From positions 55,244,001 to 55,308,000 of the forward strand of contig NC_086097.1 in NCBI RefSeq assembly GCF_963921235.1: DNA of 64,000 nt, written 5' to 3'. The notes under the pieces were generated by a model. It made no database searches, was not told where the DNA came from, and saw only the letters and a program-made list of their open reading frames with translations. Both the position numbers and the translations under genes were made by a program. This document shows positions 41,640-60,784 of this stretch, piece after piece. The DNA is from Mobula hypostoma (Eukaryota). Numbering within the stretch: position 1 is the first letter of the stretch; each line of letters opens with the position of its first letter.

Positions 41640-41861
41640 TTGACATTTCGGGCTGGTGATCGGACCCATTGGAATGAATGGAGAGCCCTGAACCTACCTG
41701 CCGTGACCCATGGAGAGACAGCAGGACGTCAACGCACCTGGAGCTGATCCCCACGTGATCCCGACTCTCGCTCAGCAATGCGCAGGCGCAGATGTCGGGG
41801 AGTGCTGATTTGCAGACCCGAGCATGAACCAATCCGCGTGAAAAAGGAGCAGTTGGGACGT
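41640..41861. promoter_or_regulatory. CpG-rich promoter-like element
   Basis: E-box CACGTG 41752-41757, NRF1-type TGCGCAGGCGCA 41779-41790, CCAAT 41829-41833, retained CpGs in non-repeat sequence. Confidence 0.55.
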
Positions 41862-42090
41862 TGTGGTAAACCATGTATATATGTTGTAACTGGGTTACCT
41901 GTCTGGACACGCCCCTCTGCTGACTGCCCCTGTGGCTCCTCCCACAGAGTCCTGTATAAAGGTGTTCGCCTTGCCCCTCCCCCTCAGTCCGGGGGCAGAC
42001 ACTCACTGTGGAGGTCGTATTGTACAGCGAATAAAAGCCTTTCAGTATTTTATCAAACCTCAGTCTTTTGGAGTAATTGAAGGTGCTTCA
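41862..42090 (+). repeat. 5' LTR
   Basis: TGTGG...TTCA; TATAAA 41955-41960; AATAAA 42030-42035; 3 substitutions versus the 3' LTR. Confidence 0.96.
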
Positions 42091-42116
42091 ATTTTATTCA
42101 CTGTACGTTTTAAAAC

Positions 42117-43460
42117 ATGGAACAGTCTCTGAGACCAGAAAAATTAGACCTCGATCCGCACATGCCTGATGCTGGAAATGCTTTCGAACTCTGGCTGGCC
42201 TGCTTCAAGGCGTATCTAGAGGAGATTAAAGCGACCGACCCCGTAGTGAAGCGCAGAGTTCTACTCTCCAGGGTCAGTCCATGGGTTTATTCGCTGATCA
42301 GAGACCAGCCGAACTACGACGGCGCGATGAACGCACTCAAAAGACAATACCTGCGGCCGATAAACAGCGTCTATGCTCGGCACCGTTTAGCGACACGGCA
42401 ACAACGCCCCGGGGAATCGAGTGCTGAGTTCGTCCAGGCCCTACGGACGCTCGTGCGAGCCTGCAATTGCCAGGAGCTGACGGCGGCGCAGCATGCAGAA
42501 CTCCTAGTGAGAGACGCCTTCGTCACCGGGACCAGGTCAGTGTACGTGCGCCAGCGGCTGCTGGAAAAAGCCGATCTTACCCTAAATTTGGCGATGGAGC
42601 TGGCTGATACGTTGGAGGCCGCTCTGCATAACTCCGAGGCTCTCCAGGCACGCGATCCCCCGATGGCCTTGTGGGCGCTGCAGACCCCGCAACCTGCCGG
42701 CAAATCGACCTCGGCTGCAGCCAGTCGTGAGTCCGTGAAGTGCTACTTCTGCGGACTAGAGAAGCACCCCCGGAAACGCTGCCCGGCCCGACAAGCTACC
42801 TGCTCCAGCTGCGGAAAGAAGGGCCACTTCGCCAAGATCTGTAAGTCAAAACCGCGAGTGGGATCGAGCAGCGCCACGTGCGAGACGTGGAGGTCGCCAT
42901 CTTCCCTGCACACTGCTACCACGTGCGAGACATGGGGGCTGCCATCTTCCCTGCACGCCACCACCACGTGCGAGACATGGGGGCGGTCATCTTGGTCGGC
43001 GCCACCTCCCACCGCCTACGACCAACGGGTGCTCAGGGGGCACCCCACCACGCTGGACCAAGACAGTGACCCCACCCTGGCTTCCGTGACCCTCGACCAA
43101 AGCGCTCCCCACCAGCTCGCAAGGTCAATGATGGACATCCTGGTGGAGGGGCGCAGGACAAGCTGCCTGTTTGACACAGGCAGCGCGGAGAGTTTTATCC
43201 ACCCGGACACGGTGCAGCATTGCAGACTCGTGATATGGCCGGTAAGTCAGAGGGTCACCGTGGCTTCCAAGTTGCATACAACAGACATCCGGGGGGGTTG
43301 TGTCGCAACACTAGTGGTGCAGGGCACAGAATATCGGGACTTTACGTTACTGGTCTTGCCTCAACTGTGTGCCCCTGTGCTATTGGGGTTGGACTTCCAG
43401 AGCCACCTGAAAAGCGTGACAATGAAGTATGATGGGCCCCTCCCGCCAATACTGTCATAA
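42117..43460 (+). CDS. Gypsy Gag (two zinc knuckles) plus aspartic protease
   Basis: CYFCGLEKHPRKRC, CSSCGKKGHFAKIC, LFDTGS, LLGLDF; the frame shifts near 43450. Confidence 0.9.
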   Translation: MEQSLRPEKLDLDPHMPDAGNAFELWLACFKAYLEEIKATDPVVKRRVLLSRVSPWVYSLIRDQPNYDGAMNALKRQYLRPINSVYARHRLATRQQRPGESSAEFVQALRTLVRACNCQELTAAQHAELLVRDAFVTGTRSVYVRQRLLEKADLTLNLAMELADTLEAALHNSEALQARDPPMALWALQTPQPAGKSTSAAASRESVKCYFCGLEKHPRKRCPARQATCSSCGKKGHFAKICKSKPRVGSSSATCETWRSPSSLHTATTCETWGLPSSLHATTTCETWGRSSWSAPPPTAYDQRVLRGHPTTLDQDSDPTLASVTLDQSAPHQLARSMMDILVEGRRTSCLFDTGSAESFIHPDTVQHCRLVIWPVSQRVTVASKLHTTDIRGGCVATLVVQGTEYRDFTLLVLPQLCAPVLLGLDFQSHLKSVTMKYDGPLPPILS

Positions 43461-43480
43461 ATCCCCTGTTTTGTAGAGAT

Positions 43481-45904
43481 ATGTCACATACCCCGCTACT
43501 GACCACACACACACACCGACCCGTGCATCCCACCCAACATCATGCCAACTGCCACACTACTGACACCACTTGTGGCCTCTCCACCCTCAGGATCCCTCCC
43601 CCACCGCTGTTCACCAATCTGACCCCCGATTGTAAACCTGTGGCAACTAAAAGCAGGAGGTACAGCGCAGGGGACAGAGCTTTCATTAAGTCGGAGGTGC
43701 AGCAGCTGCTCAGGGAGGGGGTCATTGAGGCAAGCACAAGTCCTTGGAGGGCGCAGGTGGTCGTTGTTCGGAACGGGGAGAAGAATAGGATGGTCGTGGA
43801 CTATAGCCAGACCATCAATAGGTTCACGCAGCTCGACGCGTACCCTCTACCCCGCATCGCAGATATGGTCAATCAGATAGCACAGTACAAGGTGTACTTG
43901 ACCATAGACCTAAAATCTGCTTACCATCAGCTCCCCATCCACCTGGAGGACCGCTCTTACACTGCCTTCGAGGCGGACGGCAGGCTTTATCAATTCCTGC
44001 GTGTCCCCTTTGGTGACACGAATGGTGTATCTGTCTTCCAGAGGGCAATGGACTGGATGGTGGACCAGTGCCAACTGAAGGCCATGTTCCCATATCTGGA
44101 TAACATCACCATCTGCGGTCACGACCAGCAGGGTCACGACAACAACCTCCAAAAATTTCTCCAAGCGGCCAAGTCTTTCAACCTCACCTATAACAAGGAC
44201 AAGTGTGTATTTGGGACCACCCGACTTGCTATCCCTGGGTGTGTCGTGGAGAATGGAGTCATTGGCCCTGACCCCGACAGTATGCGGCCCCTGTTGGAAC
44301 TCCCTCTTCCCAACACCCTCAGAGCCCTCAAAAGGTGCCTGGGCTTCTTTTCATATTACGCCCAATGAGTCTCTAACTATGCAGACAAGGCCCGTCCCCT
44401 GGTCAAGTCCGCCACTTTCCCCCTCTCTGCTGAGGCCCACGCGGCCTTCAACCGCATAAAAGGGGACATTGCCAAAGCAGCAATGCATGCGGTGGATGAG
44501 GCCATTCCCTTCCAAGTAGAGAGTGACGCCTCCGACTTTGCGCTGGCTGCTACCCTCAACCAGGCAGGAAGACCAGTGGCGTTCTTCTCCCGTACCCTTC
44601 AAGGCCCTGAAATTCGGCACTCTGCGGTAGAGAAAGAGGCCCAGGCCATAGTGGAAGCTGTAAGGCACTGGAGGCACTATCTTGCCGTCAAAAGGTTCAC
44701 CCTGCTAACTGACCAGCGCTCAGTCGCATTCATGTTTAATAATCAGCAGCGGAGCAAATTCAAAAATGATAAAATTCTAAGGTGGAGAATCGAACTCTCC
44801 ACCTACAACTATGACATCATGTACAGGCCTGGGAAGCTCAACGAGCCCTCCGATGCCCTATCCCGGGGAACATGCGCCAGCGCGCAGATCGACCGGCTAT
44901 ACGCCTTACATGTAGACCTTTGCCACCCGGGAGTCACCCGGCTTTTCCACTTCGTGAAAGCCCGGAACCTGCCTTACTCCCTTGAGGAGATCAGGATGAT
45001 GACCAGGGACTGCCAAGTCTGCGCAGAGTGCAAACCGCACTTCTACCGACCTGAAAAGGCACAACTCATCAAGGCCACCCGCCCCTTTGAGCGACTGAGT
45101 GTTGACTTTAAGGGCCCCCTTCCCTCCACCGACCGCAATGTGTACTTTCTTAACGTAATTGACGAGTACTCGCGGTTCCCCTTCGCCATCCCCTGCCCCG
45201 ACACCACTACCGCGTCAGTTATAAAAGCCCTGCACAAGCTTTTCACTCTGTTCGGATACCCATGCTATATCCACAGTGACAGAGGGTCCTTGTTTATGAG
45301 TGACGAGCTGCGCCAATACCTACTGGCTAGGGGAATTGCAACCAGTAGGACCACGAGCTATAATCCCCGGGGGAATGGACAGGTGGTGAATGAGAATGGC
45401 ACGGTGTGGAAAGCCACACTCTTAGACCTCAGGTCAAAGGGACTGCCGGTCTCCTGCTGGCAGGAGGTCCTTCCCGAGGCACTCCACTCCATCCGCTCCC
45501 TGTTATGCACAGCCACCAATGCCACCCCTCATGAGCGGCTCTTTTCTTTTCCCAGAAAATCGACCACTGGAACCACCCTACCATCTTGGCTGATGTCCCT
45601 GGGACCAGTGCTGCTCCGGAAACATGCGAGGAGCAATAAATACTCCGCGATAGTTGAGAGGGTTCACTTACTTCATGCGAACCCTCAGTATGCCTATGTG
45701 GTTTTACCTGATGGGCGGGAGGACACGGTCTCCATCCGCGACCTGGCGCCCGCAGGAGCTCTGGGCCCCTACCCTGAACACTCCGTGGTGACTATTGACC
45801 CCGTACCCACCAATGTATGTACCTACGACACACCCTATACAGACACCATACGACACTCCCATACCAGGCACGACGCACACGCACAAGGGATTACCGATGC
45901 CTAA
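43481..45904 (+). pseudogene. Gypsy Pol: RT, RNase H, integrase; in-frame TGA at 44366-44368
   Basis: SPWRAQVVVV, RMVVDY, IDLKSAYHQL, YLDN; VESDASD, EKEAQAIV, TDQRS; H-H-C-C (LHVDLCHPG...CQVC), SVDFKG, HSDRG; both ORFs are in the same frame. Confidence 0.92.
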
Positions 45905-46076
45905 CATGCTGGTACCTCAAGTCAGGCCGGAGCCAGCACAACCGCCATCGCCGGTGCTACGTCGATCACAGCGACGGACTCGACCGCCTGATAGACTTGA
46001 CCTGTAAATATACTTGTTTTAAATATTGTCAGTCACTTCACCCCGCGGGACTCTTTTTTAAAAAAGGAGGGGTGAA

Positions 46077-46305
46077 TGTGGTAAACCATGTATATATGTT
46101 GTAACTGGGTTACCTGTCTGGACATGCCCCTCTGCTGACTGCCCCTGTGGCTCCTCCCACAGAGTCCTGTATAAAGGTGTTCGCCTTGCCCCTCCCCCTC
46201 AGTCCGGGGGCAGACACTCACTATGGAGGTCGTATTGTACAGCGAATAAAAGCCTTTCAGTATTTTACCAAACCTCAGTCTTTTGGAGTAATTGAAGGTG
46301 CTTCA
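46077..46305 (+). repeat. 3' LTR
   Basis: Direct repeat of 41862-42090, preceded by the polypurine tract. Confidence 0.96.
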
Positions 46306-46993
46306 GATGTGAAACTTGTTCCAACTTGTAAAGTAATGTTCTCCTTGTCTGTACTAATACGCAGTGCTTCCGTTTCACAAATGACTGACCCAGTTTGTAT
46401 ACCAGAAGGCAAAAGAAGTTACACTGTGCTATTTTGAAAGGCCAGTAGGAGGAAGATCTGACTCTTTCATTCTTCCCTCACCTTGGCCTTCACCGTCGGA
46501 ATAGTAGCAAATAGAACAAACATGATGAGAAGTGAGCTGATAAACTGAAGTGCGAGTTAAAATTTAGGTGGAACTAATAGATGAGTTGTTTATGTTTAAT
46601 TCTTACTCAGGACTTTATTTCAGAAACAGGTTATTCATACTGTATGACAATAAGATTAAAATTCATCTGGAGGAAAGGAATAAAGTTATGTTGAGGAGTG
46701 CCACATGTGCTAATACTCACCGAATTCGGTGTTTTAGAACATCCAGCAAGAAATCAAATGAGCTGCTGTTTTACATCGACCTAAATTTGTCAGTTCCATT
46801 GACTGCATTTATTCCAGCGAAGTCAGTACATTTAACATGGAGAATTTTGTTGGAACACATCCGTTGCATGCTCTATGCTCTCTCTTATTAACTGCTTTTA
46901 ATTAGTGTAGCTGTCTTTTTTCATAGGCAGAAAATTTGAGTGTACTTATGTCAGAATATACCAATATAAACTACTGACGTGAATTTTTTGGGG

Positions 46994-60546: not shown

Positions 60547-60784
60547 TGTGGTAAACCATATATATATATGTTGTAACTGGGTTAACTGTCTGGACACACC
60601 CCTCTGCTGACTGCCCCTGTGGCTCCTCCCACAGTGCCCTGAATAAAGGCGATTGCGCCATTGCTCCTCCTCCCTCAGTCCAGGGGCAGATACTCAGCAT
60701 GCTGGAGGTCACATTTTACTGCTAATAAAAGCCTTTCAGTATTTACTCTACTTCCAGTCTTTTGGAGTTATTGATGGTGCATCA
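60547..60784 (+). mobile_element. Solo LTR related to the Gypsy element at 41862-46305
   Basis: TGTGGTAAACCAT...GGTGCATCA, colinear with those LTRs; TSD GTATG/ATATG. Confidence 0.92.

Follow-up and report, generated by a model that had tools for sequence, protein, structure and literature searches.

How does a Ty3/gypsy retrotransposon start reverse transcription when the sequence behind its 5' LTR offers no tRNA-type primer-binding site? The question is raised by an element of 4.4 kb with 229-nt LTRs at positions 41862-46305 of the window, by which we mean the whole stretch of 64,000 nucleotides of Mobula hypostoma DNA that was analysed. The place at which a primer would be expected to anneal is complementary to a segment of the element's own LTR. 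The best reading of this arrangement appears to be self-priming of the kind described for the fission-yeast element Tf1, which would be new in the animal-wide lineage to which the ray element belongs and would be distinguished by a tie between the primer and the poly(A) hexamer. The parts of the element are as follows.

41857..41861, + strand: left target-site duplication GACGT, agreeing with GATGT (46306-46310) at 4/5 positions
41862..42090, + strand: 5' LTR, 229 nt, TGTGG...GCTTCA, with TG..CA ends, delimited against the 3' LTR
41955..41960, + strand: TATAAA box; AATAAA stands at the equivalent place in subfamily B
41984..41990, + strand: initiator-like TCAGTCC, with the A at 41986 as the RNA start predicted from reading the sequence; subfamily B has this motif too
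42022..42036, + strand: left arm, the proposed self-primer GTACAGCGAATAAAA, with AATAAA at 42030-42035; based on sequence, copies and covariation
42037..42090, + strand: hairpin loop, made up of the remaining R and U5, with a conserved GCC first; partly self-paired in the predicted fold
42091, + strand: spacer base A, between the terminal CA of the LTR and the primer site
42092..42106, + strand: proposed primer-binding site (right arm) TTTTATTCACTGTAC, one base off the usual sequence of the family, within a CpG
42117..43460, + strand: ORF for gag (CCHC zinc knuckle) and aspartic protease (Pfam PF13975, PF13650)
43481..44368, + strand: reverse transcriptase ORF (PF00078), in a frame different from that of gag-protease, with an in-frame stop at 44366-44368
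44483..45904, + strand: ORF for RNase H and integrase (PF17917, PF17919, PF00665), without chromodomain; frame change near the C-terminus
46060..46076, + strand: polypurine tract AAAAAAGGAGGGGTGAA
46077..46305, + strand: 3' LTR, in which the arm is preserved intact (46237-46251)
46306..46310, + strand: right target-site duplication GATGT

The LTR pair with TG..CA ends, the target-site duplication, the polypurine tract and the order gag-PR-RT-RNase H-IN of the Pfam matches over the three ORFs identify the element as a member of Ty3/gypsy; a Pfam search of the window gag for Retrotrans_gag gave no match. The 5' and 3' LTRs agree at 226 of 229 positions, the differences being at 41910, 42008 and 42053, and the single mismatch between the two target-site duplications is a C-to-T transition at a CpG. 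The borders of the 5' LTR agree with the loose ends of DNA contigs, which are located at 41861/2 and 42090. The contigs, from four sequencing runs, are DNA-like, with loose ends at LTR borders and many different flanks, and they reveal neither the start nor the end of a transcript. Judging from its reading frames, the window copy is dead, because the frame is broken between protease and reverse transcriptase, the latter ends at the in-frame stop at 44366-44368 and the frame changes again near the C-terminus of the integrase.

No TGG directly follows the 5' LTR in the window copy, in agreement with the initial annotation, which had noted the lack of a TGG-type site there. The sequence in this place, TTTTATTCACTGTAC (42092-42106), agrees at 14 of 15 positions with the reverse complement of GTACAGCGAATAAAA (42022-42036), and the gag ATG at 42117 lies 10 nt past the site; both observations stand exactly as first made. 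The arm had also been placed ~60-75 nt downstream of the TATA box and said to include AATAAA, which is accurate as well, since it lies 62-76 nt downstream with AATAAA at 42030-42035. When the 20 nt behind the LTR were shuffled 3000 times, none of the shuffled sequences reached 14/15 and the maximum of 13 occurred once, and the analytic expectation for a match of this quality is 5.5e-5.

A search of the genome (3.48 Gb, 200 contigs) showed that the family of the window element, family A, is abundant and young, with 609 first-look candidates and 97-100% identity for the 40 that were scored. Of 30 family A copies taken from this genome, 26 match perfectly at 15/15, with TTTTATTCGCTGTAC as the site, while three (the window copy included) carry one private mismatch and one carries two. 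The mismatched base is A in the window copy and G in the perfect copies. As 26 of the 30 copies carry the G and match at 15/15, the mismatch in the window is attributable to CpG decay, which is how it had originally been explained.

A second subfamily, B, is represented in the window by a solo LTR.

60547..60784, + strand: solo LTR of subfamily B, 85% identical, with arm TTACTGCTAATAAAA at 60716-60730 and flanks GTATG and ATATG

The subfamily B arm, TTACTGCTAATAAAA, differs from that of family A at three positions (1, 5 and 8). Thirty genomic LTRs of subfamily B were sampled, four of which (L038, L051, L053 and L056) have an internal part behind them. All four of these full-length copies carry A followed by TTTTATTAGCAGTAA, the exact complement of the B arm, with the same 15-nt borders as in family A. 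The sites of 4/4 copies thus match all three changes in the arm, which makes three compensatory double changes within a single genome. A search of the same genome for other families with the pattern AATAAAGCC..CAATTTATT gave 11 matches, compared with 2 for the reversed control, and all were single-copy and background-like.

Related elements are found far beyond the rays. Among the best 120 protein homologues, the nearest are from the stingrays Hypanus sabinus and Hemitrygon akajei (77-87% identity), and those at 54-65% identity include proteins of Seison (a rotifer relative), a cephalopod, a crinoid, cnidarians, insects and a nematode. Metagenome contigs were scanned with an alignment of 18 pol homologues, which yielded 79 loci that are 39-63% identical to the stingray query protein. 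Too little sequence is present upstream of pol in 33 of these loci, leaving 46 usable. In 28 of the 46, a direct hairpin search detected an inverted repeat without mismatches, 11-19 nt long, at the junction of LTR and gag. In a further locus (L076) the duplex is split between both ends of a circularly permuted contig, and in two more (L114 and L127) it is present with two mismatches. A TGG following ACAA in L076 was considered as a tRNA-type site and rejected, as it lies within the loop and the contig carries both arms.

The other 15 usable loci were uninformative, and no locus has a demonstrable tRNA-type site. In nine (L068, L072, L077, L086, L103, L105, L107, L122 and L129) the upstream stretch holds no site and either lacks a gag start or is too short before gag; in four (L102, L120, L130 and L134) the junction was inferred from match offsets to lie outside the contig; L097 has matches on both strands, and in L104 the matches are far apart. 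LTR calls obtained by self-BLAST for L061, L064, L068, L125 and L139 turned out to be assembly-end repeats or non-LTRs, and the direct hairpin search was used instead.

For the analysis of covariation we assembled 18 distinct families, namely 16 from the metagenomes together with the ray families A and B, excluding L139 and degenerate copies. The 16 metagenome families are 39-61% identical in pol to the stingray query, and each has a duplex of 12-19 bp in the same place as in the ray, written in other letters. Both arms of the 18 families align without gaps. The 12 inner (loop-side) pairs form in 18/18 families, and 17 of the 19 pairs tested in this alignment have changes on both sides. Paired cells make up 87% of the alignment, compared with 61.5 +/- 1.8% after shuffling (0/500 shuffles reach the observed value) and with 33-44% when the partner strand is moved out of register by 1-3 columns. 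The longest exact match between an arm and its cognate site is 12-19 nt, while the 306 non-cognate pairs give 9 nt at most.

The framework in which these changing letters are set is constant. The left arm always lies inside the LTR and ends in ..TAAA or ..TAAAA followed by GCC or ACC, so that the 3' end of the arm in RNA (..UAAA) and the [G/A]CC behind it are invariant across families. The right arm begins with TTTA or TTTTA and is separated from the LTR by a single spacer base, which among the 24 of 30 rows that reach the LTR-proximal end of the site is A in 22, G in one and T in one. The loop measures 36-69 nt across families (87 in L139), and the gag ATG is situated -1 to 30 nt past the site. 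The initial annotation had made its proposal dependent on whether the complementarity is conserved and covaries among relatives, and it does both, in three compensatory changes in subfamily B and in 16 further families with unrelated stems. The pairing, at this position, is a real, statistically highly significant and lineage-wide feature that is both conserved and covarying.

With this evidence, a chance inverted repeat can be rejected as the origin of the arm/site match; the shuffles of the window sequence and the expectation given above, together with the recurrence of the same arrangement in 18 families, leave it a negligible probability. A different account would have the site bind a host tRNA or tRNA fragment, with the match to the LTR being incidental. 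A search with Rfam gave 60 tRNA matches, and for comparison with the site 16 short stretches from the Lys-UUU, Cys-GCA and Thr-CGU genes were used; over these three host isotypes, which are the scope of the comparison, the complement of the site was matched over 6 nt at most, and none supports a tRNA primer. ARAGORN detected no tRNA genes in the window. None of 30 sites begins with TGG, and the site differs between A, B and the 16 further families while matching the LTR of its own family in each, for which reasons we regard a host tRNA primer as effectively excluded and give it very little weight. A match to a host tRNA or tRNA fragment had been named at the outset as a result that would overturn the proposal, and the three observations (a TGG start in 0/30 sites, family-specific sites, a match of <=6 nt among three isotypes) point the other way.

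Folding of the RNA is in line with the comparative evidence. The stretch from the predicted RNA start to gag has a predicted free energy of -51.6 kcal/mol (z = -4.85), and 0/200 shuffles were as low. Its minimum-energy structure contains the 15-bp stem, which is extended by pairing of the start of the loop with its end. In most families a small hairpin of the form [G/A]CCU..AGG[C/U] follows directly behind the arm, with ACC always paired with GGU; tested family by family against shuffles, this small hairpin is in clear excess in none.

We consider Tf1-like self-priming, in an animal-wide lineage without a tRNA primer site, to be the probable meaning of these observations, and would put its probability at about 0.8. 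The reading is suggested by the location of the right arm, at the point where minus-strand synthesis must begin, and by the fact that the only matching RNA seen is a segment of the element's own LTR. A tRNA-independent primer of this kind had been proposed from the window copy, and the covarying arm/site match and the lack of a tRNA explanation now support it, with the priming step argued by analogy with Tf1.

The following course of events may be envisaged. A segment of 12-19 nt of the 5' LTR (window 42022-36) would fold onto the sequence one base past the LTR, and the RNase H of the element, or another nuclease, would cleave the duplex at its loop-side end, which in the window copy means between AAUAAAA and GCC. 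Minus-strand DNA would be primed from the 3'-OH so exposed, and this minus strong-stop DNA would copy the spacer, U5 and whatever of R lies behind the cut, ~55 nt in total. Strand transfer to the 3' end of the RNA could then take place via the stretch from the hexamer to the poly(A) site, which is estimated at ~15-25 nt. Synthesis of plus-strand strong-stop DNA would copy the primer into DNA and so rewrite the site in each cycle; if the retroviral scheme applies, a site rewritten each time from the LTR arm would stay perfectly matched to it through several changes. What is observed is the pairing; the cut, the priming and the geometry of strand transfer are inferred, as is the poly(A)-signal masking discussed below.

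The position of the poly(A) signal suggests that the duplex may do more than supply a primer. In 12 of 18 families the arm has a canonical AATAAA or ATTAAA at its 3' end, and in the predicted fold of the window family the hexamer lies within the stem in the 5' leader. The loop at 42037..42090 is likely to hold the poly(A) site and the U/GU-rich stretch GTCTTTTGG, the positions of both being deduced from the sequence. Because the right arm is outside the LTR, the stem can form in the 5' leader alone. In families with the hexamer in the arm, the duplex would therefore conceal the signal there, while the copy at the 3' end of the RNA, which no partner follows, would stay accessible. Such masking is plausible as a second function of the duplex in those families, but it is not the universal reason for the pairing, since six of the 18 arms have no canonical hexamer and three of these six families have one in the loop. 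The early suggestion that the duplex silences the poly(A) site of the 5' LTR can accordingly be retained for the 12 families with a hexamer in the arm, and not as a general rule for the lineage.

The same association could be read differently, with the hairpin acting only in a structural or regulatory capacity (5' poly(A) masking, packaging, dimerisation or control of translation near the gag start) and some other RNA serving as primer. Such a role would fit the presence of the hexamer within the stem in those 12 families and the fact that the stem adjoins or overlaps the gag ATG in several; moreover, covariation demonstrates pairing, not priming, and selection for a purely structural hairpin would also produce it. 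We nevertheless think this unlikely, given that the right arm is exactly at the annealing position of a primer, one base past the LTR, in every family, that no alternative primer site was seen among the 30 sites, none of which starts with TGG, and that six of 18 families keep the duplex with no canonical hexamer in the arm. The perfect matches despite multiple changes also fit the rewriting in each cycle that would be expected from retroviral plus-strand strong-stop synthesis. Another question is which copy of the arm would prime, as self-priming might use the arm in the 3' R of the same RNA or one from a second packaged RNA in trans. The arm of the 3' LTR is identical (46237-46251), and a primer supplied in trans would leave the 5' R of the template intact and would be compatible with transcription starting upstream of the arm (41986). 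The sequence does not distinguish between copies of the arm, and the literature passages on which we draw contain no precedent for the use of another copy. An arm in the 3' R would furthermore be paired with the new cDNA after transfer, and would be exposed to RNase H before plus-strand copying; on these mechanistic grounds a primer from the 3' R copy, one of the two sources initially entertained, seems unlikely, and we regard the use of any other arm copy as quite improbable.

Self-priming from the 5' arm, which we prefer, leads to the question of how this arm relates to the 5' end of the RNA. From the TATA box (41955) and the initiator-like motif, the RNA of the ray element is predicted to start 36 nt upstream of the arm, the A at 41986 being 31 nt past the first T of that box. 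The first base of the arm is a pyrimidine in 12 of 18 families. Neither the predicted upstream start nor the pyrimidines at the start of the arm fit well with a primer formed by the extreme 5' end of the RNA. On the other side, a primer with a 5' tail would be expected to give plus-strand strong-stop DNA a non-matching 3' flap, hindering the second strand transfer, and the sharp 15-nt border common to A and B is also in keeping with a primer that begins at that border. A scan of the 18 families for TATA-like motifs upstream of the arm found no consistent position, and the families other than those of the ray are TATA-less.

We put forward only tentatively, as a possibility on the doubtful side, a more specific version for this animal-wide Gypsy lineage. 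The self-primer would be an internal piece of R cut right behind the hexamer, and one duplex would do three jobs: supplying the primer, setting a minimal R (from hexamer to poly(A) site) for the first transfer, and hiding the 5' poly(A) signal only. If the primer is indeed internal, its processing would differ from that in Tf1, with either a second cut or a tolerated 5' tail. A primer 3' end tied to the hexamer would, if true, provide one solution both to the place of priming and to the ignoring of the 5' poly(A) signal.

A site behind the 5' LTR that is complementary to the element's own LTR-derived RNA is likewise described, in the cited passages, for Tf1 and Tf2 of Schizosaccharomyces pombe and Tj1 of S. 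japonicus, self-priming Ty3/gypsy elements that have been studied by experiment (PMC7175516, PMC4600332, PMC5341516). According to the relevant part of PMC7175516, it is the first 11 bases of Tf1 that anneal to the PBS, with RNase H cleaving between bases 11 and 12. As in Tf1 so described, the hairpin in the ray-type lineage would join primer and site and would need a loop-side cut to provide a 3'-OH. The duplex is longer in the ray-type lineage (12-19 nt vs. 11 nt), and the Tf1 primer, as portrayed in these passages, consists of the first bases of the mRNA, whereas the RNA of the ray element is predicted to start 36 nt upstream of the arm. The ray-type lineage further differs from Tf1 in an integrase without chromodomain, in much shorter LTRs (152-229 nt in complete pairs) and in its animal hosts. 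To our knowledge, the Tf1 primer holds no poly(A) hexamer, unlike the arm of 12 of the 18 families studied here.

Within the passages available from PMC6317226, PMC4600332 and PMC7175516, self-priming is presented as established for Tf1 and Tf2 and as predicted for Tf1/sushi chromoviruses, plant Tcn1 and TAR copia elements, and one statement calls it "implicated from fungi to vertebrates" (PMC4600332). The vertebrate group of Tf1/sushi elements (sushi-ichi) is likewise said there to have no tRNA site and to self-prime (PMC6317226, PMC4600332). Tf1/sushi elements are chromoviruses, in contrast to the ray-type lineage, for which Pfam detects no chromodomain in the RNase H-integrase ORF of the window and the precomputed Pfam lists of the best 120 homologues contain none. 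The plant Tcn1 chromoviruses and TAR copia elements resemble the ray-type lineage in a lineage-wide site complementary to their own LTR (PMC6317226, in the part cited); they belong to other superfamilies or clades and to other hosts, and the cited passages make no link to the poly(A) hexamer.

The lineage, which has no chromodomain, is probably Mag-like. The Mag lineage comprises A, B and C clades, and the C-clade, which includes SURL, is characterized as very widespread in the portion of PMC6238403 consulted. The ray-type lineage shares with Mag a wide distribution in animals, including vertebrates, and short LTRs; the likeness is drawn from LTR length and termini, not from phylogeny. In the tables cited, the Mag C training set has a mean LTR of 174 nt and termini TGTNATRT...AYANAACA (PMC3601003 Tables 1, 3). 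LTR pairs of the present lineage measure 152-229 nt, start with TGTGGTA, TGTTGTG or TGATGTG and end in ...ACA or ...TCA, which is similar, not identical. For mosquito Mag elements, tRNA-Leu or tRNA-Ser primer sites are given in the cited section of PMC3286476, in contrast to the 0/30 sites with a TGG start in the ray-type lineage. The literature surveyed contains no description of self-priming in Mag-like or other chromodomain-less animal Gypsy elements, nor of a primer ending in the hexamer; older primary papers may bear on priority.

With respect to the poly(A) signal, the ray element may be compared with HIV-1, in which the hexamer lies in a stem and has to be passed over at the 5' R but recognized at the 3' R. 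The poly(A) hairpin of HIV-1 lies within R and is therefore present at both ends of the RNA, and its primer is tRNA-Lys3. In the ray element, by contrast, the partner strand is outside the LTR, the stem can form at the 5' end only, and the stem is at the same time the proposed primer site.

Experimental knowledge of self-priming comes from fission-yeast elements, and its predicted range has so far covered the Tf1/sushi chromoviruses and a few plant groups. If the present reading is correct, a widespread lineage of animal Gypsy elements without chromodomain, possibly the very abundant C-clade of Mag, dispenses with tRNA, and this would provide an independent case for deciding whether hairpin priming is ancestral or repeatedly derived. 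Host defence by 3' tRNA fragments that silence at primer sites would then be powerless against this lineage, and LTR annotation pipelines that demand a tRNA-type site would miss or misjudge such elements. The match between arm and site is itself a simple marker of the lineage, and it defines the U5 boundary exactly.

Immediately 3' of the left arm, the LTR segment that is the candidate self-primer, most families carry a small hairpin of the form [G/A]CCU(A)...(U)AGG[C/U], located at 42037-42084 of the window in the ray element and at the equivalent place in the related elements on metagenome contigs (L061-L135). Within it, ACC is always matched with GGU, whereas for GCC the partner is either GGU or GGC. 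These bases serve in the ray element to close a longer stem, which spans the loop. In no single family did the small hairpin reach significance. Tf1 and retroviruses possess a U5-IR stem of their own, of which the hairpin behind the left arm could be the counterpart; alternatively, it could be related to the poly(A) site.

In the relative L139 the sequence CACAATTTAACCAACTT, comprising the U5 end and the primer site, is present twice (L139:129-255), and both copies are complementary to the single left arm of this element. The doubling may reflect a junction duplication or an assembly effect. The metagenome contig L076 is a circularly permuted element: it breaks off within its 3' LTR, partway through the left arm, and its start carries on with the loop and the right arm (the primer site). 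Collapsed LTR assemblies of this kind can conceal the hairpin from simple scans.

The element's own family (A) seems to be present mainly as solo LTRs, since in DNA-like contigs from four public runs the LTR bins (41862-42090) were about 3-20 times deeper than the internal bins (42138-46076), and loose contig ends with many different flanks lay at both LTR borders. The window also holds a copy of a second LTR subfamily (B):

60547-60784, solo LTR of subfamily B, 85% identity to the element's own LTR

The flanks of this solo LTR, GTATG and ATATG, are alike at 4/5 positions. A first look at the genome gave 2078 candidates for subfamily B versus 609 for family A. At the promoter position (window 41955-41960), family A has TATAAAGG, and comparison with L038, a subfamily B copy with an internal part, shows AATAAAGG at the same place. 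The AATAAA hexamer thus occurs twice in B LTRs, at the promoter position and again within the arm.

Elsewhere in the assembly holding the window (G000), dozens of near-identical tRNA genes are densely clustered at about 4.02-4.33 Mb of contig C90; the members retrieved from this cluster are Lys-UUU.
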